A stretch of DNA of 64,000 nt from an uncultured bacterium (GTDB lineage Bacteria > Vulcanimicrobiota > Xenobia > Xenobiales > Xenobiaceae): NCBI GenBank assembly GCA_958366945.1, contig CATXCY010000001.1, forward strand, positions 118,496-182,495, given 5' to 3'. Position 1 is the first letter of the stretch. Every line of letters begins with the position of its first letter. Both the position numbers and the translations under genes were made by a program. Shown here piece by piece: positions 5,374-59,304 of this stretch. Below the pieces are notes generated by a model that ran no database searches, was not told where the DNA came from, and was given only the letters and a program-made list of their open reading frames with translations.

Positions 5374-5409
5374 TTCCATTTTGAAAAAGTATTCGCCTAT
5401 TGTAAAGCT

Positions 5410-39363: not shown

Positions 39364-40167
39364 CTACATGGTATCGCCAGCTAAAGCGTGGTGGCAAGAG
39401 CAATCTTTACTTAAATCGATTTTTTCGATAATTTTGTAAATGAGCGCTTTTACTTTTTGGTTATTTTCGGCAAACACTCGGCTCACTTCGTCACCAGTTA
39501 CCGCTTCAGCAATACCTTCAATACCAGCATCATAATCGGTAATTAAGGATACGTTGACGTAACAAATTTCCATTTCGCGGGCTAAATAGCACTCAGGGTA
39601 GCCAGTCATGTTAACTACATGCCAGCCCATCTTTCTAAACCATTCGCTTTCGGCTCTGGTAGAAAAACGCGGCCCCTGTATTACAACCATAGTGCCTTTA
39701 GGATGAACTTCAATGCCAAGTTCTTTAGCACATTCTACAACTAAAGGACGTAAGCTAGGGCAATAGGGCTCGGCTCCAGTTAAATGGCGCACTTCAGGCC
39801 CTTCAAAAAAAGTATCTTTACGTCCCCAAGTTCTATCTACAAATTGATCACAAACGACAAAGCTGCCAGGTTTAATATCAACTTGCAAGCTACCTGCGGC
39901 ACAAGGGCCGATAATAGCTTTAACACCCAGTTGCTTCATAGCCCAAAGGTTAGCTCTATATGGAATATGCGTAGGCGACAAACGATGATCGGCGCCATGG
40001 CGAGGCAAAAAGGCTACACGCTTGCTGTGAATATTGATTAAAGAAATTTTGTCGCTAGTAGGGCCGTAAGGTGTGTTAAGCGCAATCATTTCCGCATTGG
40101 AATCTAAACTATAGAAACCGGAACCGCCGAAAACGCCAATATCTGCTTTAGCATTGCAAGTAAACAT
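39364..40167 (-). CDS. mtnP: S-methyl-5'-thioadenosine phosphorylase (PNP family 2).
   Basis: MTAP-like N-terminus (IGVFGGSGFY...) and PNP/MTAP fold. Confidence 0.8.
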   Translation of the reverse strand: MFTCNAKADIGVFGGSGFYSLDSNAEMIALNTPYGPTSDKISLINIHSKRVAFLPRHGADHRLSPTHIPYRANLWAMKQLGVKAIIGPCAAGSLQVDIKPGSFVVCDQFVDRTWGRKDTFFEGPEVRHLTGAEPYCPSLRPLVVECAKELGIEVHPKGTMVVIQGPRFSTRAESEWFRKMGWHVVNMTGYPECYLAREMEICYVNVSLITDYDAGIEGIAEAVTGDEVSRVFAENNQKVKALIYKIIEKIDLSKDCSCHHALAGDTM

Positions 40168-40414: not shown

Positions 40415-40491
40415 TGGTGGACGAGAACGGACTCGAACCGCCGACCCCCTGCTTGTAAGGCAGGTGCTCTAACCAACTGAGCTACTCGTCC
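40415..40491 (-). tRNA. tRNA-Val (anticodon TAC).
   Basis: Cloverleaf reads GGACGAGTAGCTCAGTTGG..CTTACAA..GGTTCGAGTCC with encoded CCA. Confidence 0.85.
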
Positions 40492-40584
40492 AAAAAAAAG
40501 AGAAGCTTTTCAGTAAACGCTGTCTAACTAAATCAGCCTCTCATTCTATTTAACCGCCTTCCCTATGAAGGACAGTGTTTTAAG

Positions 40585-40661
40585 TGGTAGCCCGGACGGG
40601 AATCGAACCCGTGATCTCCGGCTTGAAAGGCCAGCGTCCTAAACCGCTAGACCACCGGGCC
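40585..40661 (-). tRNA. tRNA-Glu (anticodon TTC).
   Basis: GGCCCGGTGGTCTAGCGGTTAGGAC, anticodon loop CTTTCAA, GGTTCGATTCC, CCA. Confidence 0.85.
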
Positions 40662-40693
40662 ATGTACACTTTTCTTGAACACCAAGGGGGTCT

Positions 40694-40769
40694 TGGTGGG
40701 CCCACCTGGATTCGAACCAGGGACCAATTAGTTATGAGCCAACTGCTCTAACCGCTGAGCTATGGGCCC
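40694..40769 (-). tRNA. tRNA-Met (CAT). Elongator type; a lysidine tRNA-Ile2 cannot be excluded.
   Basis: GGGCCCATAGCTCAGCGGTTAGAGC, anticodon loop CTCATAA, GGTTCGAATCC, CCA. Confidence 0.8.
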
Positions 40770-40965: not shown

Positions 40966-42261
40966 CTAAAAGTTGATGTAAAGCTGAGCGCTTTGCAAAG
41001 CTGCCAAGTGATTTTCCAAGCCAAAATAGTTTTCACAAGCGCGGGAAATTTGCTTAAGCTTATAGCGGCGCTTGGGAGCAACAAATACATAAAAGCGCCA
41101 TAAATTGCGATGCTTATCACGCAAGACATTTACTTCCGGCAATTGCAAAGAAGCTAATGAGCACGGTTCTTCTGGCCCTATTTTAACCAGAACTTCAGCT
41201 TCTTTTAATTGCATATTGGCTGAAGGGCAGTAAATAATTAGCTCTCCGGGATCTAGACCAAGATCGCTAATCAACCTCTCTTCGGCTTCTTTGCGATATT
41301 CAGCTTTATTGTGGAAACGCTCTACCAGCTGGGCTTCCTTTTCATAGCCAATGCGTCTAGTTAAAACGTAAGCACGCTTGTAAATTTTGCGCGAGCTAAA
41401 AGCTTTATAAATGCTAGCTATCAAAGGATCATCGCCAAAGTGCCACTCAATATAGGCTAAAAGACGCTCGTCGCCCAAAGGCAAAATATCTTTAAGTTTC
41501 AGCCCAAGTTCTAAAGCACGTTCTACAATTCTGGAGATCATAGCTCCGGAAGCGGTTTTGGTATGGTGGAAGAAAACGCGTTCAGTTAAAAAGTAACGTA
41601 AGCGCAATAAGTTAATAACTTCAGAAACTAAATCTTCTCTAACTACGCCATTTTTTTGGCAATCTAAATACAAGTGGCTGCCGTCAGTGCGCAAGCTGCG
41701 CATAATGCGCTTATCATATTTCTGAGAAAGACCACAAAAAAAAGCGTCGCGAGCTAAATAATCCAAAAGATCGGCACAAAACATACCGCCAATAAGCTCA
41801 CTTTGCCAAGCTTTTTCAGCCTGCCCGTGAAGAATAGCTTTTACAAGTTCGGCTATAGCCAATTTATGAAGTATTTTGCCTAGCTCAGTGCGCTTATTAA
41901 AAAAAAGCTCAAAACGCTCTGGTGAATCGTGGCGGCTAAAAATGCGCCGTTCATCTTCTACGGTATGACCAAAGGGAATATGACCTACATCATGCAAAAG
42001 AGCAGCCGCACTCACAGCTAACCTTTCGAAATTGCTTATCTTGGTACCAAATTCTTCCAAAATTTTTAGAAGAGTAAGAGCCAAGTGGCAAGTCCCCAGG
42101 CTATGCTCAAAACGAGTGTGAACTGCTCCAGGATAAACTAAAGAAGCCGTACCTAATTGCTTTATGCCTCGAAGCCTTTGCATTTGAACTGTATCTATAA
42201 GTTCAATTAACTCATCAGGCAAAAAAATATCTTCGTGTACAGGATCTCTGAATATTTTCAA
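40966..42261 (-). CDS. HD-domain dNTP triphosphohydrolase-like protein (SAMHD1/dGTPase family).
   Basis: N-terminal DPVHEDIFL...QRLRGIKQLG...YPGAVHTRFEHSLGTCHLA...LLHDVGHIPFGHTVED, the characteristic HD motif. 431 aa. Confidence 0.8.
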   Translation of the reverse strand: MKIFRDPVHEDIFLPDELIELIDTVQMQRLRGIKQLGTASLVYPGAVHTRFEHSLGTCHLALTLLKILEEFGTKISNFERLAVSAAALLHDVGHIPFGHTVEDERRIFSRHDSPERFELFFNKRTELGKILHKLAIAELVKAILHGQAEKAWQSELIGGMFCADLLDYLARDAFFCGLSQKYDKRIMRSLRTDGSHLYLDCQKNGVVREDLVSEVINLLRLRYFLTERVFFHHTKTASGAMISRIVERALELGLKLKDILPLGDERLLAYIEWHFGDDPLIASIYKAFSSRKIYKRAYVLTRRIGYEKEAQLVERFHNKAEYRKEAEERLISDLGLDPGELIIYCPSANMQLKEAEVLVKIGPEEPCSLASLQLPEVNVLRDKHRNLWRFYVFVAPKRRYKLKQISRACENYFGLENHLAALQSAQLYINF

Positions 42262-42264
42262 AGT

Positions 42265-42744
42265 TTATTCTTCGTCTTCTCCGTCATCTTCTTCGCTAAG
42301 CTCACCAGAGTAGATAGACACTTCACGGATCATACAATCTAACTGAGCCGCGCTAAGCTGACTAACTGGACATGCTGCTTGTAAGATAACATATTCGCAA
42401 TCGTCGCCCTTACTAATCATTAAGCGACTATAAATGAGGTTCTGGTCGCAGAAGCGCAATAATTCAGCCGGATCCAAATCTTCGCTGTATTCACCAATTT
42501 CAGCTTCTACTACTACAGCTTCGGCTTCATGGTACATGGCATCGTCGACATCGACCATGAAAACATCTACTTCAGGCTGATCATCCTGATAAACGCGGAA
42601 AACATTTTCTTCCGGAATCCATTCGGCTTCCATGTGCTCATCATGATATTTGGCGTAAACAATGAGCTCATCCATTAAATTGTTAAGATATTCCGGGGCC
42701 TCTAAAGACTCTTCTTCAGGATTTACAGCTTCAGGATCGGTCAT
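42265..42744 (-). CDS. Small highly acidic protein (YbjN-like?), translationally coupled upstream of the HD-domain gene.
   Basis: 159 aa with pI clearly acidic (many D/E; C-terminus EEDDGEDEE). Only a 3-nt gap to the HD-gene start, so likely an operon. Confidence 0.45.
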   Translation of the reverse strand: MTDPEAVNPEEESLEAPEYLNNLMDELIVYAKYHDEHMEAEWIPEENVFRVYQDDQPEVDVFMVDVDDAMYHEAEAVVVEAEIGEYSEDLDPAELLRFCDQNLIYSRLMISKGDDCEYVILQAACPVSQLSAAQLDCMIREVSIYSGELSEEDDGEDEE

Positions 42745-42962: not shown

Positions 42963-44042
42963 TTACTTGTCGAGACCCTGAGGGGCAAAGTCATTTTCAG
43001 CAGTCAAACGCACTGGCTCTTTGGTAATATCGCCGATATTGCCAAAGTGCAAATCAGTCATTTGTTCAAGCTGCTTCTGAGGAACCTGATAAACGCTGAA
43101 TTTATCGGGATCGAAGCCAGAAATACCTAAAGTATGATCGCTCTCAATGATGTCTTTCTGAGAAAGTACAAAGGAAGCGCTCTTTAAGTTGCCAGTTTTC
43201 TCGTCAGCCCAAACTACAGTTTTGAAGAACTGCATAGGAATCTGAACGGGCTTCTTCATGGCTCCGTTGTTGGTGAACTTAGGATCGTCATCAGAGAAGA
43301 TGGGGCCGGTGATTACGGTCATCTTCTGATTACCGCTGGTAGCACTGTCGAGAACATGATTTTCCAAGTTTAACCATTCTTTTTGGTTTAAACCGGCATG
43401 CTGTAAGGTAGCGTTGCAATAGCTAAAAGTATCATTATTAGCTTGTTTGGCCTCTTTACCCCAGCAAGGATCTAAGCGGCGCACCATGTGGCCCTTATCG
43501 ATATCATTGTTCCTGTAAGCTTCGTTGCCCAACTGGCATTCGCGGGGAATACGACCATCGAGTTCCCATTTGCCGCTGCGGGGCAAGTCTTGGTGAGTAG
43601 CACCATCGATATTGGAAATGGTGTAGAAGCACTGTTTGCGCTCACCATTCATAACGATGGAGAAGTGAGTATAAGGTAAAACATACTCGCCAGGCTTGTC
43701 GGTACGCATAGCCACTTTGTCTTTAATGGAACTGCCCAACTCGGGAAGAGGAAGCTCTTTACCTAAGAAAGAGCTGTCATAACCGGCACGATTGCGATAC
43801 ATGTTGACGCCGTCGCCTTGGACAGTGATGGGGCCCTCAGCCTTTTGGGCTTGAGCACTGGCGTGGCTCTTGAAAAGTCTGCCGGCGCTGGCAAAGGCTT
43901 GCTCGTTAGCGAAGTCTCTGTTGTCGTCATGGACGAACACATCCTTGCTGCTTCCCTGGAAGCCTTCGGGACGGCTGACAGAATTTTCAATCATCTGAGG
44001 ATTGTTAAATAACGAGCTGCTAGAGATACTGTTAATTCCCAT
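42963..44042 (-). CDS. DNA/RNA non-specific endonuclease (EndoG/NucA family), paralog 1 of 6.
   Basis: Start refined to ATG 44042 (MGINSISSSS) with GGAG upstream; tracker ORF extends to 44159. Catalytic DKGHMVRRLDPCWG (DRGH-type His-Me finger) and NATLQHAGLNQKEWLNLENHV (Mg-binding Asn/Glu). Confidence 0.8.
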   Translation of the reverse strand: MGINSISSSSLFNNPQMIENSVSRPEGFQGSSKDVFVHDDNRDFANEQAFASAGRLFKSHASAQAQKAEGPITVQGDGVNMYRNRAGYDSSFLGKELPLPELGSSIKDKVAMRTDKPGEYVLPYTHFSIVMNGERKQCFYTISNIDGATHQDLPRSGKWELDGRIPRECQLGNEAYRNNDIDKGHMVRRLDPCWGKEAKQANNDTFSYCNATLQHAGLNQKEWLNLENHVLDSATSGNQKMTVITGPIFSDDDPKFTNNGAMKKPVQIPMQFFKTVVWADEKTGNLKSASFVLSQKDIIESDHTLGISGFDPDKFSVYQVPQKQLEQMTDLHFGNIGDITKEPVRLTAENDFAPQGLDK

Positions 44043-44496
44043 TTTTATCTGCTCCATTACCGAAGCCTGCTTCGCCTTAAAGCAGGCTAAATTCCTGATT
44101 TTAAATGCCTTACACAGACAAAATATCTTCAGGCGTGACATGCTCCTTAAGCTTAACAAAATTTGCTAAACTTAAGGCTTCTGAGATGTTGATGAACCGC
44201 ACCTCCAAAAAATTTGAAAGTACAAGCTCTATCTTAGTAGGTGATGTCCCACCTACATGCTGCTCAGCTTCAAAGTTCCCTTGTATGCAATGATACAAAG
44301 AAAAATATTGGAGCTAAGTAACGTTTTATATAATCTTTTCCTCCCCTTTCTCCTAAATATTAGCAGTCAATTAGGCAAAAATGTTCCTTTTTTATGAACT
44401 TTTAGTTAACGTATCAAAAAATGAGCCGTCTGCTGCAAAATATTTTTACAGCGCGGCCCATCTATATTTACCTAATATGTAGCTAAGTTAAATACT

Positions 44497-45603
44497 TTAG
44501 CTGAGTTTAGGAGCGTAATTGTTGTCAGCGCTTAAGCACATAGCTGTTTCGGTAATATCGCCGATATTGCCAAAGTGCAAATCAGTAAGACGCTCGACTT
44601 CTTTCTGCGGCACTTGATAAATTTTAAATTCACCGGGATCGAAGCCTTTGCCCTTATTCTTCTTAGCTTTAAAGAGAGAGCTATCATTATTGATAATATC
44701 TTTTTGAGAGAGAATAAAGGAAGCGCTCTTTAAGGTGCCTTTTTCATTCCAAACTACAGTTTTGAAAAACTGTAAAGGAATTTGGGTAGCTTCTTTCATG
44801 GCGCCTTTATTGTCGAACTTCGGATCGTCATCGGCAAAAATAGGGCCAGTAATTACAGTCATTTTTTGACCGGAACCGCGAGCTGAATTTAAAACGTGAT
44901 CTTCTAAACGCAACCACTCTTTTTTATTGAGACCAGCGTGTTGTAAAGCGGAGTTGCAATAGCTGAAAGTATCCTCACCAGCTAACTTGGCATTTTGGCC
45001 CCAACAAGGATCTAAGCGACGCACCATGTGACCGCGATCAATGCTATTTCCGCCGTAAGCTTCGTCACCAAGCTGATATTTGCGAGGAATGCGGCCATCT
45101 AAAGTCCAGGTACCTTCACGTTTTACGCTGCGAGAAGCTCTACCATCAATATTACAAATAGCGTAGAAGCATTGCTTGCGCTCTTTATTCATTACTACTG
45201 AATAGTTGGTGTAAGTAAGCTCACACTCACCAGGCTTATCGGTGCGCATAGCCACTTTATTCTGAATGGAAGAACCTAAGCCGGGCAAAGGAAGTTCTAC
45301 GCCCAAGAAAGATTTGTCGTAGCCGTTGCGCCCCTCAAACATGCTGACAGGCTCGCCTTGCACGGAGATCAAAGAAGAAGCGGAATTAGTTTGTTGAGCT
45401 TCGCGACCACAACTTTGGAAAAGACGACCAGCCTTGGCGAATTCTTGCTCTTTAGTAAATTGAGCGCTCTCGTCACGAACAAAAACATCTTTGCCCGTAC
45501 CCTGAAAGCCTTCAGGACGGCTGACACTATTCTCAGAGACCTGAGTGTTAATATATAAAGAATTGCTGGAAATGCTGCCTATTCCCACTGAAAATAGCTC
45601 CAT
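44497..45603 (-). CDS. EndoG/NucA-family nuclease, paralog 2.
   Basis: MELFSVGIGSISSNS...; DRGHMVRRLDPCWG; NSALQHAGLNKKEWLRLEDHVL. GGGGGGAG Shine-Dalgarno. Confidence 0.8.
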   Translation of the reverse strand: MELFSVGIGSISSNSLYINTQVSENSVSRPEGFQGTGKDVFVRDESAQFTKEQEFAKAGRLFQSCGREAQQTNSASSLISVQGEPVSMFEGRNGYDKSFLGVELPLPGLGSSIQNKVAMRTDKPGECELTYTNYSVVMNKERKQCFYAICNIDGRASRSVKREGTWTLDGRIPRKYQLGDEAYGGNSIDRGHMVRRLDPCWGQNAKLAGEDTFSYCNSALQHAGLNKKEWLRLEDHVLNSARGSGQKMTVITGPIFADDDPKFDNKGAMKEATQIPLQFFKTVVWNEKGTLKSASFILSQKDIINNDSSLFKAKKNKGKGFDPGEFKIYQVPQKEVERLTDLHFGNIGDITETAMCLSADNNYAPKLS

Positions 45604-45643
45604 TGTTCTCCCCCCACTGTAATATATGCAAAGTTCTCTATTT

Positions 45644-45683
45644 CAAAAAAAGCTGCTCGACTTATTAAAATCGAGCAGCTTTC
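45644..45683 (-). terminator. Rho-independent terminator downstream of paralog 3.
   Basis: AAAGCTGCTCGA...TCGAGCAGCTTT flanked by an A-run (U-run on the minus strand). Confidence 0.55.
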
Positions 45684-45703
45684 TACTCAGCTAAAACAAA
45701 ATG

Positions 45704-46822
45704 CTAGCTTAACTTAGGAGCGTAATCGTTCTCGGCAGTTAAGCGCATAGGCTTCTCGGTGATGTCACCGATATTGCCAAAGTGCAAATCGGTCATTTGC
45801 TCGAGTTGCTTCTGAGGCACCTGGTAAACGCTGAAGCGGCCGGGATCTACACCCTTGCTCTTAAAGAGAGAGTGATCTTTATTGATAATGTCTTCCTGAG
45901 AGAGCACGAAAGAGGCGCTCTTAAGCTTGCCACCATCGTTCCAGACCACGGTCTTGAAGAACTTCATGGGGATCTGGGTAGCTTCTTTCATTCTGCCCTT
46001 GTTGTCAAACTTAGGATCGTTTTCAGAGAAGATCGGGCCAGTGATAACGGTAAGTTTCTGCTTTTCTTTGCCAGTAGTGGCGCTGTCCAAAACGTGGTTT
46101 TCTAAGCAGAGCCATTCTTTTTGGTTCAAAGCACCATGCTGCAAGGTGGCATTGCAATAGCTGAAAGTATCACGGCTGGCGCGCAGAGGATCGTCGCCCC
46201 AGCAAGGATCTAAGCGGCGCACCATGTGGCCCTTATCGATATTGTTGCCGCCATAAGCTTCGTTGCCCAACTGGTATTCACGAGGAATACGACCGTCGAT
46301 AGTCCAGTTGCCATCGCGCTTTACTTCCTGGTGGCTGTTACCGTCGATATTGCAAATAGCATAGAAGCACTGTTTGCGCTCTTTGTTCATTACTACGGAG
46401 TAGTTGGTGTAAGTGAGCTCGCTCTTGCCAGGCTCATCGGTACGCATAGCGACCTTGTCTTTAATAGAATCGCCCAAACCAGGTAAAGGAAGATCTACGC
46501 CCAAGAAAGACTTGTCGTAGCCGTTGCGACCTTCAAACATGTTGACGCTCTCGATATCGACACCGGAAGCGGCAGACATAATATTGGTTTGCTGAGTCTC
46601 CTCAGGATTGGCTTGAGGCTGAGCCTCGCGCTGGCAGCTTTGGAAAAGGCGACCGGCCTTAGCAAAATCCTGCTCTTTGACAAACTGAGCGTTATCATCG
46701 TGTACAAATACGTCTTTGCCAGTACCCTGGAAACCTTCAGGACGACGAATAGAGCTCTCAGAGATTTGAGTGTTAGTATATAAAGAACTACCAGAAATAC
46801 TTCCGATACCCATTGTGAACAA
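45704..46822 (-). CDS. EndoG/NucA-family nuclease, paralog 3.
   Basis: TTG start at 46822, or ATG at 46813 (MGIGSISGSS). DKGHMVRRLDPCWG; NATLQHGALNQKEWLCLENHVL. Confidence 0.8.
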   Translation of the reverse strand: MFTMGIGSISGSSLYTNTQISESSIRRPEGFQGTGKDVFVHDDNAQFVKEQDFAKAGRLFQSCQREAQPQANPEETQQTNIMSAASGVDIESVNMFEGRNGYDKSFLGVDLPLPGLGDSIKDKVAMRTDEPGKSELTYTNYSVVMNKERKQCFYAICNIDGNSHQEVKRDGNWTIDGRIPREYQLGNEAYGGNNIDKGHMVRRLDPCWGDDPLRASRDTFSYCNATLQHGALNQKEWLCLENHVLDSATTGKEKQKLTVITGPIFSENDPKFDNKGRMKEATQIPMKFFKTVVWNDGGKLKSASFVLSQEDIINKDHSLFKSKGVDPGRFSVYQVPQKQLEQMTDLHFGNIGDITEKPMRLTAENDYAPKLS

Positions 46823-46972
46823 CCCCTAGTTTTCTCCCCACCCCAGACCTTGTTTACCAATAAATACTACAGAATTTAAAATACTATTTGTGCACAAAAT
46901 TGTAACAAGCTTGTCAAATTTTCATTTAAAGTCGCATTTTTTAGTTTGTAGCTTATGATTAAGCTCCAGAAC

Positions 46973-47020
46973 AAAAAAAAGCGCCTTGCTCTTTATTTTT
47001 TCAAGAGCAAAACGCTTCTC
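46973..47020 (-). terminator. Rho-independent terminator downstream of paralog 4.
   Basis: GCGCCTTGCTCTT...AAGAGCAAAACGC with an A8 run. Confidence 0.55.
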
Positions 47021-47038
47021 ATCTAAATGCTCAGTTCC

Positions 47039-48226
47039 TTACTTATCTAAACCTACGGGAGCATAGTTATTTTCTGCAGTCAAACGCACGGCTTTTTTGC
47101 AAGTATCGCCAATGTTGCCGAAATGCAAATCGGTAAGGCGCTCAACTTCTTTTTGAGGCACTTGATAGACATCGAAACGGCCAGGCTCAAAACCGCCTTT
47201 AAGCTTAATGGTGTCATCTTCTTTGATAATATCTTCCTGGGAAAGAATGAAAGAAGCGCTCTTTAAATTGCCAGTTTTTTCGTCGGCCCAAACGACTGTT
47301 TTGAAGAATTTCATAGGAATCTGGGCAGGCTCTTTCATCTTGCCATTATTGTCGAACCAAGGGTCGTTCTCGGAGAAAATAGGGCCAGTAATTACACTCA
47401 TCTTTTGACCGCTGGCAGAATTGAGCACATGGTCTTCTAAAGCGAGCCATTCATCTTGGTTTAAACCGGCATGTTGCAAAGAAGCGTTGCAATAGCTGAA
47501 AGTGTCACGGCTAGCTAATTCGGCATTGCTACCCCAGCAAGGATCTAAGCGACGTACCATGTGGCCCTTGTCGATATTGTTGCGTTTGTAAGCTTCATCG
47601 CCCAATTGGTATTCACGAGGAATGCGGCCATCTAAAGTCCAGTTGCCGGAACGCTTAACAGCGTGCTGGCTATTACCGTCGATATTGCAAATAGCGTAGA
47701 AGCACTGCTTGCGCTCTTTATTCATTACTACGGAGTAGTTGGTGTAAGTAAGCTCGCTCTCGCCGGGCTTGTCAGTACGCATAGCCACTTTATCTTGAAT
47801 GGAAGAGCCAAGTTGAGGCAAAGGAAGCTCGGTACCTAAGAAGTTTTTGTCGTAGCCATTGCGACCATTAAACATACTGACTTTGTCGCCTTGAATTGTA
47901 ACTACACCAGAAGCGGAATCAGCTTGCTGAGATTCGCGATTCCCACTTTGGAAGAGACGACCAGCTTTAGCAAAGTCCTGCTCTTTAACAAACTGAGCAT
48001 TATCATCATGAACAAAGACATCTTTGCCAGTACCCTGGAATCCTTCAGGACGGCTGATAGAGCTTTCAGGAACCTGATTATTTATATACAAAGAGCTGCC
48101 AGAAATACTTCCGATACCCACAGTAAACGACTCCGATTTTTTCCCCGCCCCAAAACTTTCTAACTCAGTAGATACTACAGAATTTAAACGACTGGTTAGG
48201 CACAAAAATGTAACAAAATTGACCAA
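47039..48226 (-). CDS. EndoG/NucA-family nuclease, paralog 4.
   Basis: Likely true start is GTG at 48121 (VGIGSISGSS) with GGAG 11 nt upstream; the tracker ORF begins at 48226. DKGHMVRRLDPCWG; NASLQHAGLNQDEWLALEDHVL. Confidence 0.8.
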   Translation of the reverse strand: MVNFVTFLCLTSRLNSVVSTELESFGAGKKSESFTVGIGSISGSSLYINNQVPESSISRPEGFQGTGKDVFVHDDNAQFVKEQDFAKAGRLFQSGNRESQQADSASGVVTIQGDKVSMFNGRNGYDKNFLGTELPLPQLGSSIQDKVAMRTDKPGESELTYTNYSVVMNKERKQCFYAICNIDGNSQHAVKRSGNWTLDGRIPREYQLGDEAYKRNNIDKGHMVRRLDPCWGSNAELASRDTFSYCNASLQHAGLNQDEWLALEDHVLNSASGQKMSVITGPIFSENDPWFDNNGKMKEPAQIPMKFFKTVVWADEKTGNLKSASFILSQEDIIKEDDTIKLKGGFEPGRFDVYQVPQKEVERLTDLHFGNIGDTCKKAVRLTAENNYAPVGLDK

Positions 48227-48235
48227 AAGAAAAAT
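48174..48235 (-). promoter_or_regulatory. Conserved promoter-like element upstream of the nuclease paralogs.
   Basis: Plus-strand motif TACTACAGAATTTAAA...TTAGGCACAAAAATGTAACAA...TTGACCAAAAG. Homologous copies occur at 46865-46925 and 49587-49650. Sits between each terminator and the next start codon. Confidence 0.4.
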
Positions 48236-48276
48236 AAAAGCGCTCTGGCTTCAATATGAAACCAAAGCGCTTATTT
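48231..48276 (-). terminator. Rho-independent terminator downstream of paralog 5.
   Basis: AGCGCTCTGG...CCAAAGCGCT with an A-run. Confidence 0.55.
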
Positions 48277-48318
48277 AAGCGTGCCGACTACAATGCGGCT
48301 TCCGCTTAGTGATATTTA

Positions 48319-49434
48319 CTAGGCTAACTTAGGAGCGTAGTCATTCTCAGCGGTCAAGCGCATAGGCTGCTCGGTGATGTCGCCAATATTGCCAAAGTGC
48401 AAATCGGTGAGGCGCTCAACTTCTTTCTGAGGCACCTGGTAAACTTCGAAGCGATCGGGATCGAAACCGCCCTTAGCACCTAAGGAACCGTCACCATTGA
48501 TAATGTCTTCCTGAGAAAGGATGAAGGAAGCGCTCTTGAGCTCTTTGCCTTCGGTCCAAACCACAGTCTTGAAGAACTTCATAGGAATCTGGGCCGGTTC
48601 TTTCATCTTGCCATGGTTGTTGAAGGAAGGATCGTCTTTGGAGAAGATAGGGCCGGTAATGACGGTCATCTTCTGGCCTTTAGCAGAATTGAGAACGTGG
48701 TCTTCGAGCTGGAGCCACTCTTTCTGGTTTAAACCAGCGTGCTGTAAGGAAGAGTTGCAATAGCTGAAAGTGTCATGGCTAGCCAAATCGGCGTTTTTGC
48801 CCCAGCAAGGATCTAAGCGGCGAACCATGTGGCCTCTGTCTATATTGTTGTCGGCATAGGCTTCGTTGCCGAGCTGGTATTCGCGAGGAATACGACCATC
48901 GAGGCTCCAGCTGCCGGAACGCTTAACATCGCGATGAGTAGTGCCATCAATGTTGCAAATGGCATAGAAGCACTGCTTGCGCTCTTTGTTCATTACTACG
49001 GAGTAGTTGGTGTAAGTAAGTTCGCACTCGCCGGGCTTGTCGGTGCGCATAGCCACTTTGTCTTTAATGGAATCGCCAAGGCCGGGCAAAGGAAGCTCTA
49101 CACCCAAGAAGGCTTTGTCGTAACCATTGCGGCCTTCGAACATGCTTACGCCGTCGGGCTTAACTTCGCGGGGACCTTTAGGACCGTTAGGGCCTTGAGC
49201 GCCATCATTCCTGCGGCGATTCTTTCTCTTGGCGATTTCGAAACTGTTGTCGTTTACGCTCTGGAAGAGGCGACCAGCTTTAGCAAACTGCTGCTCTTTG
49301 GTGAGCTGAGCGTCGTCGTCATGAACGAATACGTCTTTGCCAGTGCCCTGGAAACCTTCAGGACGTTTGATAGAGCTCTCAGAAACCTGAGTGTTAGTAT
49401 ATAAAGAATTACCAGAAATGCTTCCGATACCCAT
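48319..49434 (-). CDS. EndoG/NucA-family nuclease, paralog 5.
   Basis: MGIGSISGNS...; DRGHMVRRLDPCWG; NSSLQHAGLNQKEWLQLEDHVL. Unique basic linker (RKNRRRNDGAQGPNGPKGP). Confidence 0.8.
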   Translation of the reverse strand: MGIGSISGNSLYTNTQVSESSIKRPEGFQGTGKDVFVHDDDAQLTKEQQFAKAGRLFQSVNDNSFEIAKRKNRRRNDGAQGPNGPKGPREVKPDGVSMFEGRNGYDKAFLGVELPLPGLGDSIKDKVAMRTDKPGECELTYTNYSVVMNKERKQCFYAICNIDGTTHRDVKRSGSWSLDGRIPREYQLGNEAYADNNIDRGHMVRRLDPCWGKNADLASHDTFSYCNSSLQHAGLNQKEWLQLEDHVLNSAKGQKMTVITGPIFSKDDPSFNNHGKMKEPAQIPMKFFKTVVWTEGKELKSASFILSQEDIINGDGSLGAKGGFDPDRFEVYQVPQKEVERLTDLHFGNIGDITEQPMRLTAENDYAPKLA

Positions 49435-49649
49435 GTTTTACAATTCCTATCCCTTTAATTAGGCTTTGCAGAAAACTCTGGTAGTCACAAAAACTGTCAA
49501 AGCTTTCAACGAATCGAGACAAGCCAGCTACTATCTAAAACGCAGACAACAGATACGCTTGCTCAAAAAACATTAACTGAACAGATACTACAGAATTTAA
49601 AAGTCTAATTAGGCAAAAAAATGTTACAACTTGGCCAAAAAACTTTTTA

Positions 49650-49696
49650 AAAATAAAATGCGCTCCAAAGCCAAAGCTTTTGAAGCGCATTCAATT
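49650..49696 (-). terminator. Rho-independent terminator downstream of paralog 6.
   Basis: AATGCGCT...GAAGCGCATT with an A-run. Confidence 0.55.
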
Positions 49697-49716
49697 AGCT
49701 ATTTTATATATAAGAT

Positions 49717-50772
49717 TTAGTTTAACTTGGGAGCGTAGTCGTTCTCAGCGGTCAGGCGCATAGGCTGCTCGGTGATGTCGCCGATGTTGCCAAAGTGCAA
49801 GTCGGTGAGACGCTCAACTTCTTTCTGAGGCACCTGGTAAACTTCAAAGCGATCGGGATCGAAGCCACCTTTAATGCCCAAAGAGCTGTCGTTGTTGATG
49901 ATATCTTCCTGAGAGAGGATGAAGGAAGCGCTCTTGAGCTCTTTGCCATCATTCCAAACTACAGTTTTGAAGAATTTCATGGGGATCTGAGTAGGCTCAT
50001 CCATCATACCGTTGTTATCAAACTTTGGATCGTCTTTGGAGAAGATGGGGCCGGTAATAACGGTCATTTTTTGACCTTTAGCAGAACCGAGCACGTGATC
50101 TTCAAGTTTGAGCCATTCTCTCTGGTTCAAGCCACCATGTTGCAAAGCGGCGTTGCAATAAGTGAAGGTGTCACGGCTAGCCAATTCGGGATCCTTACCC
50201 CAGCAAGGATCTAAGCGGCGAACCATGTGGCCCTTGTCAATATTGTTATCTTTGTAGGCTTCGTTGCCCAACTGGTACTCGCGAGGAATACGACCATCGA
50301 TAGACCAGCTGCCGGAACGTCTGACATTGCGATGGCTGGTGCCGTCAATATTGCAAATAGCGTAGAAGCACTGCTTGCGCTCTTTGTTCATAACGACAGA
50401 GAAGTTAGTATAGGTGAGTTCGCTCTCACCAGGTTTGTCGGTGCGCATGGCAACTTTGTCTTTAATGGAAGAGCCGAGCTCAGGTAAAGGAAGTTCGGTG
50501 CCCAAGAAGTTTTTGTCGTAGCCATTGCGGCCTTCATACATACTGACGCCTTCGATTTCAATTTCGGAAGCGGCATTGACGTGTCCGGCCTGAGTGCTCT
50601 GGAAGAGACGACCAGCTTTAGCGAATTGCTGTTCTTTGGTGAACTGAGAGCTTTCGTCGCGAACGAAGACATCTTTGCTAGTGCCTTGGAAACCTTCGGG
50701 ACGCTTAACGTCGCTCTGCTGGATATTATTAAAGGCAGTAAAAGAACTGCTGGATATGCTACCTAAACCCAT
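49717..50772 (-). CDS. EndoG/NucA-family nuclease, paralog 6.
   Basis: MGLGSISSSS...; DKGHMVRRLDPCWG; NAALQHGGLNQREWLKLEDHVL. Confidence 0.8.
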   Translation of the reverse strand: MGLGSISSSSFTAFNNIQQSDVKRPEGFQGTSKDVFVRDESSQFTKEQQFAKAGRLFQSTQAGHVNAASEIEIEGVSMYEGRNGYDKNFLGTELPLPELGSSIKDKVAMRTDKPGESELTYTNFSVVMNKERKQCFYAICNIDGTSHRNVRRSGSWSIDGRIPREYQLGNEAYKDNNIDKGHMVRRLDPCWGKDPELASRDTFTYCNAALQHGGLNQREWLKLEDHVLGSAKGQKMTVITGPIFSKDDPKFDNNGMMDEPTQIPMKFFKTVVWNDGKELKSASFILSQEDIINNDSSLGIKGGFDPDRFEVYQVPQKEVERLTDLHFGNIGDITEQPMRLTAENDYAPKLN

Positions 50773-50907: not shown

Positions 50908-53559
50908 TCAATCGTTATGCCAGCTAGGTTTGTCCATTGCTGGAGACGTCTGAGCCGCTTTAACAGCGGTAGTTTCTTCCAAATTGTTTTTGCTTTCCGC
51001 AACCGAACTATCCATATTGCCTACGTTGGCAGCTCCACTTAGCCTATCGCTAAAAGGAGATTGTGAAGCCGCACTGTCAACTTTTTTGAAAGCATTTTGA
51101 TCAGTTAAGTCGGGAATTTCTATATCTTTTAACTCTTGAGTGTCTTTAGAAGAAACACCTTGCGAAGTTGTAGAAGAAGCGGTAGAACCAAGCTCAGGCT
51201 CGGTGCCATTAGTGCTAATGAACTTATCGGCTCCCTTATTACCAAGACGCTTTGAATAGTAGTAGGAAGTTACCAAAAGAGCCACGCCCAAAACGAAGAA
51301 AAGCAGCAACTTATAGACGATAGGCAAATTTATAATATCGTAAGTAATTACTCTAAGCAAAGTAACACAAACGATAAAAATACCACAGTTGGTGATATAA
51401 CGATTCTTAAAGCGAATACCACCCCAAAGGATTGCCGCTGCGTAGAGCATCCACAAAACAGAAGTAATAGAACTTAAATGGCAAACTGCGGCAATATTAT
51501 GTCCTTCTATATGAACTAAAGACCAGCCACTAAGCACAGCTCCAACCAGATAAATTTCAGATCCGTAAAGTACAAAAGCGGCAGCTAAAGCCAAAATAGT
51601 TAAAGCGTGAGCTAAAAAGCCGATATTAACTATAGGAATAAATTCGGCATAAGTACCTGTAATGCAACTAAGAATATTGATAGTCAAGCCAAATAAAGAC
51701 AGAGCCAAAGCCAAATTGAAACCAATGGCAAAAGCATTGCTCTTAGCCTTTTTGGCTTGAAGCATAGCTTGCAAAGCATAAATAGAACAAACGGCCACTA
51801 AGCTAAAGCAGCTAAAAGCCCACCACTGTTGACCATTTAAACTCAAAACGCGATCTAAAATATCGGCTAATTCTCGACCAAAATAAATATAAGCTAAGGT
51901 TATACCAGCCCAAAGGTTGAAATCTCTGTATTTTTCATCACCATTGTAGTGACGGAACATTAAATAGCCAAACAGCCAAGCAGCAATAGAAACTCCGAAA
52001 ATAATTATGGCCAGCTTATGAAGTTCTCGATCAGGACTTAAGAAAAAGTCAAATTTGCCATTAAAGTCGGCCACTAGCATAATGAAAAAGGCCAATACAT
52101 TATGCAAACCGCTCCAGAAGAAGAGGCGTCGTTGCACTTCCGGCTTGACAACTTTATTAAAAGCAATCCAAAGAATAACTAAACCAGCTATAGAGAGGAA
52201 AATAACTCTGGACAATGGCTCTTGGAAGTTGTACGCAGAAAGACCGACCACAAATAAGCCAGCATTGACAAAAGCTCTAGCTAAAGTGTTCATATTTTCT
52301 GCACGCAATTTGGCTAAGCCAAATAAAGCCACCGCAGCCATCATAAAAGCAGCAAAGGCTTGACCTTCACTGTAAATACAATTGGCTCCCAAAGCCATTA
52401 TTAAATGGTTAATCCAAACGGAAGGCTGCTTAGGATTATTTTCGTCTTGGCGGCGGAAGTAATCGTATATCAAGACGATAAGCCAGATGGCTCCCAAAGC
52501 ATAAGGGCTAAAAATTCGGTCAGCCTTTTCGAAAATGCCAGTTCGGGTAGCAATAAAAAGCCAGGTTATAGCTAAGTTGATACTAAAAAGTGAATTCCAC
52601 TTCTGGCAACGCACAGTACCTATTAAACAAAAAAGAGCCAGAATTACTAAATAGACATCAAAAACATAAGTACTGTCGATAGAAGTTTGAATAAAAATTA
52701 AGTTGGCATAACCAGCCAAAGCTCCCAGACAAATAATGGATTTGCGTTGAGCCCAATAAGCCAATACATAAGTGCCCAACAAAATAAGTGAAGCCAGAGC
52801 CAAGCTTACGTAATTATCCCAAAGATCAAAGTAAACGCTGCCAGCATAAGTTACCATGATAGCCGAAGCTAATCCCAACCCCAAAATGGTTTCGGAAAAG
52901 CCGCGCATATTGTCTTTAGGCAAAAGATAAAAACCTAAGCCCACAAGCACCGAGCTCAAAGCATAGACCGCGCCAACCTTCATAGCTGCAGTCAAAGCCA
53001 AAAATGGGGATAACCACTTTATGAAGAGGATGACAAAGACGATAATAGCCAGAGCGCCTAATTTATTGAAAAGGCTGCCCAAGAAGAATTGCTCTAAGTT
53101 GCTTTCAGTTTTGGGCTGAGAGGCAACCGTTTTTTGCGCATATAGCCTAGCTTCGTGCGTAGGCGCAGCCGTCGGCGCTGAATTTGTAACAACGTTAGGC
53201 TCAGCAAGTGATATTTTTTCTTTAGCTAACGACAATACTTTTCCAGTAGCCTCTTCAATAGAATCAGCTGCCGTTGGTGCACTAACTGTCCCGTCTAGTT
53301 TATTGTTATCAGCATAAGTAGAAGAAATTGACGATTCGTTTTCTTGTCGACACGCCTTTTGGGTTGAGTCCGGAAGACGTCCGGAAGTGCCGCTAAGGGA
53401 AATAGTCAAATTTTCCAGACCGACTTCAAGCCTCTCTACGCGTTTTTTTAAGCTTTGGCAAGAAGCCATAGCTATAATAGAAAAAATAAATGGCAGGAAA
53501 AATATTCCTAAAGCCGCGAGCACCAACACAATAAATTCCAATTTTGCACCCTTCCCCAA
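50908..53559 (-). CDS. Large polytopic membrane protein (DUF2339-like).
   Basis: 883 aa. N-terminal TM, a short coiled coil (KKRVERLEVGLENL), a Ser/Thr/Ala-rich linker, then ~20 TM helices. Confidence 0.5.
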   Translation of the reverse strand: MGKGAKLEFIVLVLAALGIFFLPFIFSIIAMASCQSLKKRVERLEVGLENLTISLSGTSGRLPDSTQKACRQENESSISSTYADNNKLDGTVSAPTAADSIEEATGKVLSLAKEKISLAEPNVVTNSAPTAAPTHEARLYAQKTVASQPKTESNLEQFFLGSLFNKLGALAIIVFVILFIKWLSPFLALTAAMKVGAVYALSSVLVGLGFYLLPKDNMRGFSETILGLGLASAIMVTYAGSVYFDLWDNYVSLALASLILLGTYVLAYWAQRKSIICLGALAGYANLIFIQTSIDSTYVFDVYLVILALFCLIGTVRCQKWNSLFSINLAITWLFIATRTGIFEKADRIFSPYALGAIWLIVLIYDYFRRQDENNPKQPSVWINHLIMALGANCIYSEGQAFAAFMMAAVALFGLAKLRAENMNTLARAFVNAGLFVVGLSAYNFQEPLSRVIFLSIAGLVILWIAFNKVVKPEVQRRLFFWSGLHNVLAFFIMLVADFNGKFDFFLSPDRELHKLAIIIFGVSIAAWLFGYLMFRHYNGDEKYRDFNLWAGITLAYIYFGRELADILDRVLSLNGQQWWAFSCFSLVAVCSIYALQAMLQAKKAKSNAFAIGFNLALALSLFGLTINILSCITGTYAEFIPIVNIGFLAHALTILALAAAFVLYGSEIYLVGAVLSGWSLVHIEGHNIAAVCHLSSITSVLWMLYAAAILWGGIRFKNRYITNCGIFIVCVTLLRVITYDIINLPIVYKLLLFFVLGVALLVTSYYYSKRLGNKGADKFISTNGTEPELGSTASSTTSQGVSSKDTQELKDIEIPDLTDQNAFKKVDSAASQSPFSDRLSGAANVGNMDSSVAESKNNLEETTAVKAAQTSPAMDKPSWHND

Positions 53560-53761: not shown

Positions 53762-55012
53762 TTAGGCGTTAATTCCGTGGCACTTTTTGAACTTTTTGCC
53801 ACTGCCACAAGGACAAGGATCGTTGCGACCTACTTTAGCCTGAGCATAAGGATTGACTAAGCTCAAAGCTTTACGGAACTCTTCGTTGTTAGGCTCGAAG
53901 CCACAAGCACGATAGAAAGCGGCGGCAGCTTCTTGCTGCATGCCAGCAGTCAAATAAACCCAACCGGCGGAAAGGTAAGGATAACCGTAACCGCGATCGG
54001 ACTCTACGCCTTTAGCAACTTCTTCTTTAGCTTCGTCAATTTTGCCACCCCAAGCCAGAACAGCAGCCAAATTCAAGTGAGCTAAAGATTTCTTCTGGCC
54101 ATTTTCTACGATCAAGTATTTGCTGAAGCCTTTATCGCGATACTTATCGTTGGCCTGAAGCAAGAACTCAACAGCTCTGGCCTGAGGATAGGCTTCCAAA
54201 AGTTCGGCAGCGCGACGCAAGTACTTTTCAGCTTCTTCCAAGCTGTCTGTTAAAGCATAAGCTACACCGATATTCAAGCAAACTAAAGCCAAATCATCAT
54301 CATTGATGTGCTTGGCTTCAATTTCTTCCATGGATTGCTTCAAATACTTCATGCCGTCTTCAACTTGGCTGTTAAGCATGAGCATAAAGCCGTAGTTGTT
54401 AAGTACCAAATAATGATGGCACTTTTCTTCTTCGATGCCAGCTTTGTAAACTTCCAAAGCAGCGAGCAAACCTTTGCTACCATAAGCCATAGTAGCGCGG
54501 TGCATAATAGCCGGAGCCATTTCTTCGCTTAAACCGAGCTCACGGAAGAATTTGCAACTATCATCATATTCGGCCATAGCGGCACGGGATTGGTTGGCGT
54601 CTACATAAAGGTTGCCCATGTTGCGGTGGCCGCGTCCCTGACCAGCCTTGTCGCCAAGTTCAGTCCAAATGGATAAAGCTCTGGAATAATGGAAGCGAGC
54701 TTCGTCCAAACGGTTGCGCTGATGATAAGCGGAGCCCAAATATTCATCGGCTTGAGCCATAGCTTCTTGATCATTTACCTTTTCGGCTTCAGCGCGACTG
54801 CGGCGGAACTGAATAATAGCATCATCCATTTTGCCTAAGCGGGAGAAAGCAACTCCGCTAAGGTGGTAAAGGCGAACTAATTCTTCGGGCTGAGAAATTT
54901 CTTCTTTAGCCAAGCGAGACAGTTCTTCTGAAGCTTCAGCGTTTTTCTGAGCATTTAAAAGCTCTTCGACGTTGTCGAGAGCGGCACTGAGATTTACGGC
55001 GGTATCTGACAT
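53762..55012 (-). CDS. TPR-repeat protein with a C-terminal SEC-C zinc-binding motif.
   Basis: Start refined to ATG 55012 (MSDTAV) with AGGAG 6 nt upstream; tracker ORF extends to 55078. C-terminus [17 protein letters not shown] is a SEC-C motif. Confidence 0.65.
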
Positions 55013-55254
55013 TGAGACTCCTATTGTAAGTTGCGGACTTTTTCTGCGATATTTATAAGCCATGCCCGCATTTTTCAAACTTCGAAGCCCGATTTTTCCC
55101 CTCTATTTTCTTTTATCCTGCTTGAATACTACTACTGAGAGTATGGCACCTAAGCAATGCTCTTTACTGCCACAAAAAGTGAATTTATATCGAATAATTT
55201 GCTAAGATGCTGGCCCTAAAAAAAATTTGCCACCAAGCATAAAAAGGGACTATA

Positions 55255-57555: not shown

Positions 57556-59304
57556 CTAGAACGAAATAAATATGGGCAAAGAGATCGCTTTCTTTTCGCG
57601 TCTAGCTTTATTAAGTTCTTGCGAGCACAACAAAGGATAAGTTAACCTTACAGCTTGGAAAAGATCGTTTTCAGCTTGGTTTAGACTATCTAAAAACAGA
57701 CCCGTCAAACTGCTATCCGAATTGCCTTTACTCGAATCAGCCGTGCCATAAATTAAAGCAGTACAAGAGCTACTATCTAATTGGCTGGCAATTAAAACAT
57801 TGTTTTTATCTAATTGGCTGGGTAAATTCTTCACTTGCGAAGATTTTACGTCCCAAATAATCATAAAGCGAGCACCGGGCAAAGATTGCCGATATTGACG
57901 TAAATAGTCGGAAGTTATGCTAAAATTCTCTTTTTCATCACTACTGACGAAAGCTAATTTTTTACCGTCAAAGTTAAAATTGCCAATTAAATAGAGCACT
58001 ACTAAATCGGAAGAATTACAAGAAGCTCTTATATTTTCCAAAGATTTCTTAATATTTTCGGCTTTGGCCTCTGCTCCAGGCAAAGTTTTAACGCTGAAAC
58101 CGCGCTCCATAAAAGCTTGACGCACTTGCATAGATTTCTGACTGTTAGAAACATCACTTAAATTGTAGTTGGGACCGACTATTAAAGTTCTGGTCTTCAT
58201 TCCTTGGTCAGAAGTAACAGCGTATAGTTCAAAGGATTTTTTAAGTTTGCGCCCTTCCAAATCGGCTACATCTATTTCAATTTTGTTAGTTCCCGGCTTA
58301 AGATCTACACAAAGATCTATTTCTAAATCGGCAATTTGCAAACCTAAAGGAGTATTCCAAAGATTTTCTCCGTTAATAGTTAAGGATGCACTGAGAATAC
58401 CGGCCGGAGCATCTATAGTACCACGCAAAGGAACTTGCTTAACGCTAGATATTTTATTTCCTATGGGATCAACAATATTGACAAAAGGAGAGCGATCGTC
58501 TTTAGCTATTTGCAAATCGTACGTTTTATTAACTAAGCGACGAAAACCAGCTAAGCCATAGATCGATTCACGCATATCTAAAACAACTTCCAAAGAGAGA
58601 ATATCACCCTTGAGAGTAGCATTCTTTATGGAACTTATGGAGTTGTAACAAATAAAATTAGGCGAAGGTAGATCCAAGGCCGCACTCGTCTGTTCATCTA
58701 GGCTAAAAGCTTGGAAAGAGCTCAAAGGATAAAGTGCTCCTATTAAACGCTGGCCACGCTTAATTTCCAAACCGGAATTGCCATCTAAATAGATGCGCTC
58801 CTCTACTCTATCGCCATCTATATCTTTTCTATAAAGCAAGCGCTTCGTTTTATAAGCTTGCGATTTGTAGCTAAGCCACGATTCATCAGTAACTTTTACG
58901 CTGACATTGCCATTTTCAGGAAGCTGACGGTTGAATTTTGCTCTGGCTAACCAGTTAAGATACTGGCATCCTCCGGAACGCAAGTCCCAGCTTATGTACT
59001 TTTTATCCTTGTCTTTAGAATTTAAAGAGCTTTGGGCTATTTTGTACAGTCCTTCCAATTCGGCAATTTCATAAGCTTGTTTCTTGGCCTCTTCGTTATT
59101 CAAGCCACTAGGCAAACCTACTTTAGAAATAAAACTTATTCTGCTCTTTTTTAAGTCTACAGCTGCAGTAGGAGCCGGATTGGGATCTTGGCCGTCTTCT
59201 TGAGCTGAAGTAGGCTGGACATTAGCCAATATAAATAAAAGAACTACTGACAGAGAAAGCAACAGACACAAACGACTGCGCTCAGATAAACAATTTAATA
59301 ACAT
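57556..59304 (-). CDS. Secreted protein of unknown function.
   Basis: Signal peptide LLLSLSVVLLFILANVQPTSAQ. 582 aa. C-terminal third has weak, probably degenerate caspase-like (C14) resemblance. Confidence 0.4.
   Translation of the reverse strand: MLLNCLSERSRLCLLLSLSVVLLFILANVQPTSAQEDGQDPNPAPTAAVDLKKSRISFISKVGLPSGLNNEEAKKQAYEIAELEGLYKIAQSSLNSKDKDKKYISWDLRSGGCQYLNWLARAKFNRQLPENGNVSVKVTDESWLSYKSQAYKTKRLLYRKDIDGDRVEERIYLDGNSGLEIKRGQRLIGALYPLSSFQAFSLDEQTSAALDLPSPNFICYNSISSIKNATLKGDILSLEVVLDMRESIYGLAGFRRLVNKTYDLQIAKDDRSPFVNIVDPIGNKISSVKQVPLRGTIDAPAGILSASLTINGENLWNTPLGLQIADLEIDLCVDLKPGTNKIEIDVADLEGRKLKKSFELYAVTSDQGMKTRTLIVGPNYNLSDVSNSQKSMQVRQAFMERGFSVKTLPGAEAKAENIKKSLENIRASCNSSDLVVLYLIGNFNFDGKKLAFVSSDEKENFSITSDYLRQYRQSLPGARFMIIWDVKSSQVKNLPSQLDKNNVLIASQLDSSSCTALIYGTADSSKGNSDSSLTGLFLDSLNQAENDLFQAVRLTYPLLCSQELNKARREKKAISLPIFISF

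Follow-up and report, generated by a model that had tools for sequence, protein, structure and literature searches.

Six predicted EndoG/Serratia-type nucleases with a common N-terminal module form an old tandem array in a Xenobia gut lineage

Non-specific nucleases endanger the cell that produces them, and both their safekeeping and their route of delivery matter. How, then, does a bacterial lineage from primate, human and other animal guts maintain such an enzyme in four to six old copies, with neither a signal peptide nor an inhibitor for each copy? The question is raised by a 64,000-nucleotide (nt) stretch of contig CATXCY010000001.1 from an uncultured Xenobiaceae bacterium (assembly GCA_958366945.1; the whole stretch is called the window below), in which positions 42963-50772 hold six tandem minus-strand open reading frames (ORFs), the paralogs p1 to p6. 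Judged by its sequence, the array encodes six sugar-non-specific nucleases of the EndoG/Serratia type, with predicted activity, and forms a battery that is specific to the lineage and has been passed on vertically. An initial annotation had described the array as polymorphic-toxin-like and had pointed to an N-terminal module common to all six proteins.

All six paralogs match the Pfam family PF01223 (Endonuclease_NS); the E-values range between 2e-36 and 3e-43, the scores are 126–149 bits against a cut-off of 23, and the proteins can be aligned over their whole length with a mean column identity of 77%. Each copy has the same three-part build, consisting of a 59-amino-acid (aa) N-terminal module, an unalignable spacer of 16–36 aa and the nuclease domain. 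Pairwise identity among the paralogs is 58–92% (median 69%) in the module, 65–87% (median 74%) in the nuclease and 6–43% (median 16%) in the spacer, in keeping with the earlier observation that the segment between module and nuclease differs from copy to copy. All on the minus strand, p1 (359 aa, 42963-44042, PF01223 E=2.9e-43) has its module, codons 1–59, at 43866-44042 and a spacer of 19 aa at 43809-43865; p2 (363 aa, 44497-45588, E=6.7e-39) has its module at 45412-45588 and a 21-aa spacer at 45349-45411; and p3 (369 aa, 45704-46813, E=2.8e-37) has its module at 46637-46813 and a 30-aa spacer at 46547-46636. The corresponding positions are 47945-48121 and 47882-47944 (21 aa) in p4 (360 aa, 47039-48121, E=9e-39), 49258-49434 and 49150-49257 (36 aa) in p5 (371 aa, 48319-49434, E=5.6e-37), and 50596-50772 and 50548-50595 (16 aa) in p6 (351 aa, 49717-50772, E=2.4e-36). 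The gaps between copies measure 115–454 nt. The module starts with a GTG codon in p2 and p4, in both cases with a GGAG 9 nt upstream, and p2 also has an in-frame ATG at 45603. GGAG-, AGGGG- or AGGA-like ribosome-binding sites lie 9–10 nt 5' of the conserved start in all paralogs except p6. For p5 and p6 an earlier start is precluded, since the listed codon is in each case the first possible one after a stop.

Across the six paralogs and 86 relatives the catalytic motif DRGH...N...LNQxxW...E does not vary, and its residues, among them the catalytic DRGH histidine and the Mg-binding Asn, align to those of EndoG; by this measure all six active sites are intact. The isoelectric point (pI) of the nuclease domain varies among the paralogs from 5.5 to 8.8, being 5.8 in p1 and 8.8 in the basic domain of p2. 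AlphaFold2 (AF2) modelling of full-length p5 (model m8870dfc8d169) with an 86-sequence alignment gave a mean predicted local distance difference test score (pLDDT) of 81, compared with 30 in a single-sequence run. Residues 95–371 are modelled confidently, with a pLDDT >90 over most of 100–371, and a Foldseek search with the model returned EndoG, EXOG, CPS-6 and the Serratia nuclease at probability 1.0 and ~20% identity. Residues ~95–371 are thus confidently predicted to adopt the beta-beta-alpha-Me fold of EndoG/Serratia-type nucleases. The confident fold begins ~40 residues before the Pfam match, and the Pfam model therefore appears to underestimate the domain.

Residues 1–39 and 65–94 of the same model are disordered (pLDDT 40–53 for residues 1–40, and 42–53 per 10-residue block over residues 61–90), and a single helix of moderate confidence (pLDDT ~70) spans residues 40–64. 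Given the low to moderate pLDDT of residues 1–94 against >90 in the domain, the module lies outside the nuclease fold in the full-length model, contrary to the possibility, raised at the outset, that it might simply be part of that fold. It is very improbable that the N-terminal region is an extension of the fold or a functionless tail. The early start of the confident fold relative to the Pfam match would agree with an extension, but the low pLDDT of the first 94 residues, the indel-rich spacer between module and fold, conservation of the module across genera and selection on it as strong as on the enzyme all argue otherwise. The pLDDT values give no confident intramolecular docking of the module, which, as modelled, looks like a segment that folds upon binding something.

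The module that had been described as common to all six proteins is indeed present in each of them, and the consensus from the alignment of the six paralogs, MGIGSISSSSLYxNTQVSESSVSRPEGFQGTGKDVFVHDDNAQFTKEQxFAKAGRLFQS, is nearly the one first noted. Every copy follows the pattern MG(I/L)(G/N)SIS...RPEGFQG..KDVFV....EQxFAxAGRLF(Q/K)S; p1, which begins MGINSIS, and p6 deviate from the consensus inside residues 4–22. Up to residue 18 there is no charge at all, 12–14 of the first 22 residues are S, T, N, Q or G, and the module as a whole is nearly neutral. Its Kyte-Doolittle maximum over 10 residues within the first 40 aa is merely 0.53–0.84 and, across the six paralogs, hydropathy and a motif check revealed neither a hydrophobic h-region nor an RR motif, which bears out the earlier statement that this is not a Sec or Tat signal. 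An N-myristoylation motif (MGxxxS/T) was considered and rejected on account of the Ile at position 6 and of relatives that start MINGISS, as was an amphipathic membrane-binding helix, the hydrophobic moment being only 0.26–0.33. Pfam gave no match to residues 1–120 even at E-values up to 10, and PADLOC, PHROGs and NCBIfam yielded nothing useful on the nuclease module.

As to which C-terminal domains the first ~60 residues are fused to, a point left open by the initial annotation, a HMMER profile built from 38 module sequences found this nuclease family alone among 1.84 billion representative proteins. The four true matches are one full-length nuclease of the same family and three nuclease fragments, two of which are visibly frameshifted or chimeric. 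The 80 remaining matches were rejected as short-motif artefacts, repeat proteins that share DVFV(R/H)D alone: beta-propeller proteins whose PD40/TolB-like repeats contain 'DVFVRD', and proteins with repeated cold-shock domains containing 'GKDVFVH'. Residues 26–40 of the p5 module (window 49315-49359), EGFQGTGKDVFVH, resemble the cold-shock-domain motif GFGFI..G.KDVFVH, and proteins with multiple cold-shock domains were recruited in the profile search; we judge this stretch, from its sequence, to be a short-motif coincidence. A word-indexed search with the module alignment returned a single fragment, P0121, a 72-aa piece from an 890-nt ENA contig that combines a p5-type module (98% identical) with a p6-type spacer (STQAGHVNAAS) and may be either a natural p5/p6 recombinant from a different strain or a chimera that arose when paralogs were assembled together. 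In the window and 232 kb of related loci, the MGIGSIS/MINGISS start occurs in nucleases only. The module is confined to this nuclease family.

Within the family, the full module can be traced to ~50% identity in the form MINGISS...ERPEGFQG..KD.FVRD....E.SFR.MGELF. Its sub-motifs, an M-h-x-x-h-S/N start, DxF and an F-[KR]-x-A-[GA]-x-x-F helix, recur in many, not all, remoter Eremiobacterota homologs, and distant homologs with an extension of 22–40 aa and no helix also exist. In three orthologs from Candidatus Bruticola metagenome-assembled genomes (MAGs; L001 13987-15087, L002 10001-11077 and L002 12678-13772), the central RPEGFQG..KDVFV is replaced by Cys/Ser-rich sequence (for example CCSEKSEVASQDTF); these orthologs, which sit on long branches, retain the DRGH site as well as the start and the helix of the module.

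Restriction of the module to one enzyme family speaks against a polymorphic toxin system, in which a conserved trafficking N-terminus would deliver diversifying toxins whose cassettes are swapped by gene conversion, and we consider that reading hardly credible for this locus. The array does resemble such a system in its tandem paralogs with a conserved N-terminus and a nuclease C-terminus, in short identical tracts above the null expectation (see below) and in fragment P0121 with its p5-like module and p6-like spacer. However, the module is fused to no different C-terminal toxin domain, and the C-terminal domain is itself a conserved part, at 65–87% identity and a ratio of nonsynonymous to synonymous divergence (dN/dS) of ~0.1. 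No immunity ORF lies between the copies, and the ORFs in the largest inter-copy gap are missing from the orthologous array, where intergenic identity is 77% compared with 94% in coding sequence. Pfam detected no trafficking domain of the LXG, PAAR, Rhs, VENN, MIX or similar kinds, and the saturated synonymous sites and 1:1 orthology described next are likewise at odds with diversifying cassettes. The description as polymorphic-toxin-like is therefore withdrawn, and with it a false lead is removed.

Synonymous divergence between paralogs (pS 0.41–0.96) is saturated in module and nuclease alike. With dN/dS at 0.03–0.23 in the module and 0.07–0.18 in the nuclease, both are under purifying selection at a ratio of ~0.1, synonymous sites being saturated throughout. 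The spacer, at 0.25–5 and mostly 0.5–1.7, drifts neutrally with a dN/dS of ~1. That of p5 is basic and rich in Gly and Pro; in p5 (49150-49257) and the orthologs P0001, P0002 and P0033, the spacers have collagen-like GPxGPx triplets as well as runs of basic residues (KRKNRRRN, HKHKHK), and close orthologs differ from one another in these by indels of whole repeats.

The closest proteins come from 'Candidatus Bruticola sp.' and bacterium UBP9_UBA11836, and the nearest ortholog, at 93% identity, is in the Hadza gut MAG L008. The genus name Candidatus Bruticola reportedly goes back to Ji et al. 2021, and we take the lineage to be UBP9, of the class Xenobia and the phylum Eremiobacterota; UBP9 and Candidatus Xenobia have each been linked to Eremiobacterota in the literature. 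In a distance tree, each of the six paralogs has a 1:1 partner among the L008 orthologs, whose order is the same (p1 and its ortholog share 94% nt identity), and two other Bruticola MAGs (L001 and L002) have four copies, of the p2, p3, p4 and p5 types. The p1 copy belongs to an older clade than p2–p6, one shared with remoter genomes, and p6 is the youngest duplicate, sister of p5; two ancient clades are present. The copies are old, as indicated by the saturated synonymous sites and the six 1:1 orthologs in the Hadza MAG. Paralogs cluster by orthology across genomes rather than by genome, and the history of the array is one of birth-and-death evolution of old duplicates, not of concerted evolution.

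Ongoing gene conversion had been proposed from a 36-nt identity between p1 and p2. The identity is exact (43023-43058 = 44551-44586); it lies at the 3' ends of the two genes and encodes the invariant motif TDLHFGNIGDIT, and exact runs of 35–46 nt occur in several other pairs, always within invariant protein motifs. When codons were reshuffled among columns of the same amino acid, three of the 15 pairs exceeded this null (p = 0.003, 0.0003 and 0.003). The identical stretch is more than chance yet very short, and conversion in tracts of ≤46 nt is possible, without homogenisation. So much of the proposal stands; saturation of synonymous sites and grouping by orthology contradict the rest.

What, then, could an old, conserved and family-specific module do? 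We tentatively favour, at somewhat less than an even chance, the view that it binds a partner and serves as a handle by which nucleases for scavenging or attack are targeted or exported without Sec. Under this model, the uncharged, S/T/N/Q/G-rich start, the strand-like DVFV motif and the helix (EQxFAKAGRLF) would fold only on binding a partner; the partner-bound module would target or export the nucleases independently of Sec, possibly keeping them harmless in the cytoplasm; and the released enzymes would degrade foreign DNA and RNA in the gut, for nucleoside salvage or attack, with the spacer acting as a flexible tether only. We favour an export handle because conservation of the module begins at Met1 and its composition is that of leaderless signals, because the array behaves like a stable core battery whose paralogs differ in charge and adjoin nucleoside-salvage genes, and because it is hard to see why six non-specific nucleases should be kept constitutively in the cytoplasm. 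The 1:1 orthologs, the four-copy MAGs, the two ancient clades, the housekeeping surroundings with an outer-membrane beta-barrel gene in the window, the flanking phosphorylase and HD genes and the spread of domain pI fit a core digestive or attack function better than a mobile defence gene. A more specific version, in which the module is the recognition tag of an undescribed Sec-independent export or delivery route in Eremiobacterota (Xenobia), with the nucleases released or injected and the neighbouring TPR/SEC-C, DUF2339 and acidic ORF products perhaps taking part, is doubtful. If the module is an export tag, it would hint at a new route of secretion in a phylum that is diderm and of barely known cell biology; a literature search found nothing on secretion systems or nucleases of Xenobia.

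The relatives of the array nucleases in other phyla suggest a different role. At 36–41% identity, proteins from many phyla are without a signal peptide, and most are ~600-aa fusions of Trypsin_2 and Endonuclease_NS; both fusion loci examined (P0116 and P0118) lie among TIR, nSTAND1, SLATT and TPR-S genes. In the P0116 locus (JGI 3300050046) and in L097 the fusion protein is followed by a TPR-S-Trypsin_2 protein, among TIR, ThsB_TIR, nSTAND1/WD40, SLATT and MAP3K_TRAF_bd genes. By analogy, the array could encode intracellular nucleases in which the module folds back and silences the enzyme until spacer cleavage or another trigger frees the activity, serving programmed DNA degradation or abortive infection as a minimal counterpart of the protease-nuclease fusions. 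This is the main rival of the export handle, a possible though not a probable reading. It would account for the missing signal peptide and for the lack of an immunity gene per copy, or of any small downstream ORF in the other contexts, since self-protection must then come from elsewhere; the leaderless fusions, ~40% identical and in two cases set in TIR/STAND/TPR-S neighbourhoods, agree with it, and the disordered spacer would be accessible to proteases. On the other hand, six ancient paralogs under purifying selection at a syntenic housekeeping site do not fit defence genes, which turn over fast, and none of the PADLOC models matches the nuclease domain, either in the array or in the P0116 and L097 fusions. 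Nor does the array have the hallmarks of a conflict effector: unlike P0116 and P0118, it shows no protease domain by Pfam and its neighbours are housekeeping genes. AF2 gave no confident docked conformation, orthologs with a degenerate RPEGFQG retain the DRGH site, and distant homologs manage with an extension of a mere 22–40 aa and no helix. If the module nevertheless proved to be such a segment, it would cage an EndoG-type enzyme by compact means.

Several of these observations, together with others, weigh against the export handle. The leaderless wider clade, with two loci amid TIR, nSTAND and TPR-S genes, makes an intracellular ancestry plausible, and docking of the module helix onto the nuclease domain stays compatible with the AF2 model, as judged from pLDDT rather than from predicted aligned error or contacts. 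The genomic evidence is drawn from the window and ~20-kb loci of related genomes, and within that reach no secretion or injection machinery came to light. The contexts with DUF2339, TPR/SEC-C, acidic ORF and HD genes are all from a single lineage of family rank, so that the adjacency of these genes to the nucleases may be inherited synteny and not a functional link. Finally, the only cultivated member of the phylum, a diderm, is without flagella (PMC9758169).

The neighbours themselves are arranged in the order TPR/SEC-C, DUF2339, nuclease array, acidic ORF, HD, three tRNA genes and PNP-family phosphorylase. Directly downstream of the array, at 42265-42744 (minus strand), lies a 159-aa ORF with a pI of 4.05, separated by 3 nt from the HD gene (40966-42261, minus strand), which encodes a dGTPase-like HD-domain phosphohydrolase (PF01966 and PF19276, with weak dGTPase matches in NCBIfam and PADLOC). 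The acidic ORF has relatives in 16 clusters among 5.8 billion proteins, all from this lineage, and no match in Pfam, NCBIfam, PADLOC, PHROG or, by profile search, the PDB; hhalign against an approximate E. coli YbjN sequence gave an uninformative probability of 0.1. Its product may be an inhibitor of the nucleases or a chaperone, and the module could be the docking site through which this one product serves all paralogs, much as NuiA does with NucA, EndoGI with EndoG, or as a secretion chaperone would. We hold that arrangement to be unlikely. The low pI, the lineage restriction and the location immediately past the last nuclease gene in the same orientation are suggestive, as are the nuclease-acidic-HD order kept in six contexts (the window, L001, L002, L003, L091 and L095, the last with different flanks) and a conservation of 75–81%, above that of the nucleases of the same genomes. 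Yet the acidic ORF is coupled to HD by its 3-nt gap and is always found beside it, including L094, where no nuclease adjoins; nuclease pairs elsewhere are without such a neighbour, no likeness to a known inhibitor or chaperone is detectable, and the module is nearly neutral in charge. Each of the roles first proposed for the module, export tag, autoinhibitory domain and docking domain, thus keeps a share in the readings weighed here, and export, an intracellular silencing function and docking of the acidic ORF product are not mutually exclusive.

Directly upstream of the array is the gene for an 883-aa polytopic membrane protein (DUF2339, 50908-53559, minus strand; PF10101 E=4.7e-26), followed by that for a TPR protein whose C-terminus carries a SEC-C metal-binding motif of the SecA type (53762-55078, minus strand; TPR_12 and PF02810). 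DUF2339 adjoins nucleases in L001, L002 and L091, and a 26%-identical homolog does so in L003; the TPR/SEC-C gene is kept in the lineage (L003 8391-9635, L091 4287-5531, L094 6-1268). The neighbourhood recurs with variations in L001, L002, L003 and L091. Module-bearing nucleases elsewhere are single genes or tandem pairs in unrelated housekeeping contexts, with no small downstream ORF. In the window, the three tRNA genes (Val-TAC, Glu-TTC and Met-CAT; 40415-40769, minus strand) lie between the HD gene and an MTAP-like phosphorylase gene. Two PNP_UDP_1 phosphorylase genes (39364-40167 and 59320-60312, both minus strand) flank the array, and a Metallophos_2 phosphoesterase gene (34265-34720, minus strand) is near it; with HD, these enzymes would fit a route from nucleic acid through nucleoside to base, and their adjacency may equally be plain synteny.

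A 68-nt element (repeat family D11, 72–100% identity, minus strand) is found upstream of p3, p4 and p5, at 46853-46920, 48161-48228 and 49574-49641, and is, from its sequence and position, probably a shared promoter or operator; every paralog appears to have its own upstream region. A consensus scan revealed a terminator-like hairpin with a 16-bp stem and a T-run downstream of p5 (48238-48272, minus strand) and a weaker one downstream of p3 (45672-45689), which suggests that the copies are transcribed separately. A repeat search found no inverted repeats and no invertible promoter, and an Rfam scan found the three tRNA genes only, with no riboswitch in the intergenic regions.

The surroundings of the array are housekeeping genes, and the window also has an outer-membrane beta-barrel gene. 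Six large ORFs of 359–694 aa without a Pfam match lie at 1105-7494, 17320-18912 and 57556-59304, among them a 530-aa ORF (17320-18912) with a lipoprotein-like signal start (…SLSVIGCGG). A 935-aa ORF at 61180-63987 (minus strand) has an N-terminal HisRS-like (tRNA-synt_His) match over ~200 residues alone and is unusually long for a relative of HisRS or HisZ.

Polymorphic toxins such as LXG proteins of the type VII secretion system (T7SS), CdiA and Rhs are defined by a shared N-terminus, a variable toxin C-terminus and adjacent immunity genes. The array is like them in its nuclease C-terminus, its tandem paralogs and its lack of a Sec signal, but all three defining traits, including the joining of the shared N-terminus to varied toxins, fail here. 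Type III effectors and contractile-injection cargo have disordered N-terminal signals, and the array proteins resemble them in their polar, uncharged and disordered N-terminus, their strand-plus-helix segment that would fold on binding and the small acidic ORF nearby. The likeness is a lead only; at the N-terminus it consists of composition (12–14 of the first 22 residues S/T/N/Q/G, no charge in the first 18, pLDDT ~40), a property of low specificity. The adjacent 159-aa ORF is acidic, as a CesT/SycE-type chaperone would be, and is without Pfam or PDB similarity. Nucleases paired with inhibitors are known from NucA/NuiA, EndoG/EndoGI and colicin DNase/Im, and here too a non-specific nuclease gene stands beside a gene for a small, very acidic protein; unlike those pairs, four to six nuclease genes are followed by a single acidic one, which is tightly coupled to HD and has no sequence similarity to known inhibitors.

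The Trypsin_2-Endonuclease_NS fusions belong to the same nuclease subclade and, like the array proteins, are leaderless and have a GYDxxFLG N-terminal subdomain. They differ in carrying an N-terminal region of ~300 aa with a serine protease domain where the array has its 59-aa module, and in the variable, defence-type neighbourhoods of the two examined, whereas the array is syntenic amid housekeeping genes. The Serratia marcescens nuclease, Anabaena NucA and EndoG/EXOG share with the array the PF01223 family, the DRGH/Asn/NQxxW motif and the predicted fold, at ~20% sequence identity to solved structures. Serratia nuclease, NucA and mitochondrial EndoG/EXOG begin with a Sec signal or a mitochondrial presequence; the array instead has a non-hydrophobic module, a disordered spacer and six ancient tandem copies. 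The enzyme family is thus known, its architecture new and its amplification specific to the lineage.

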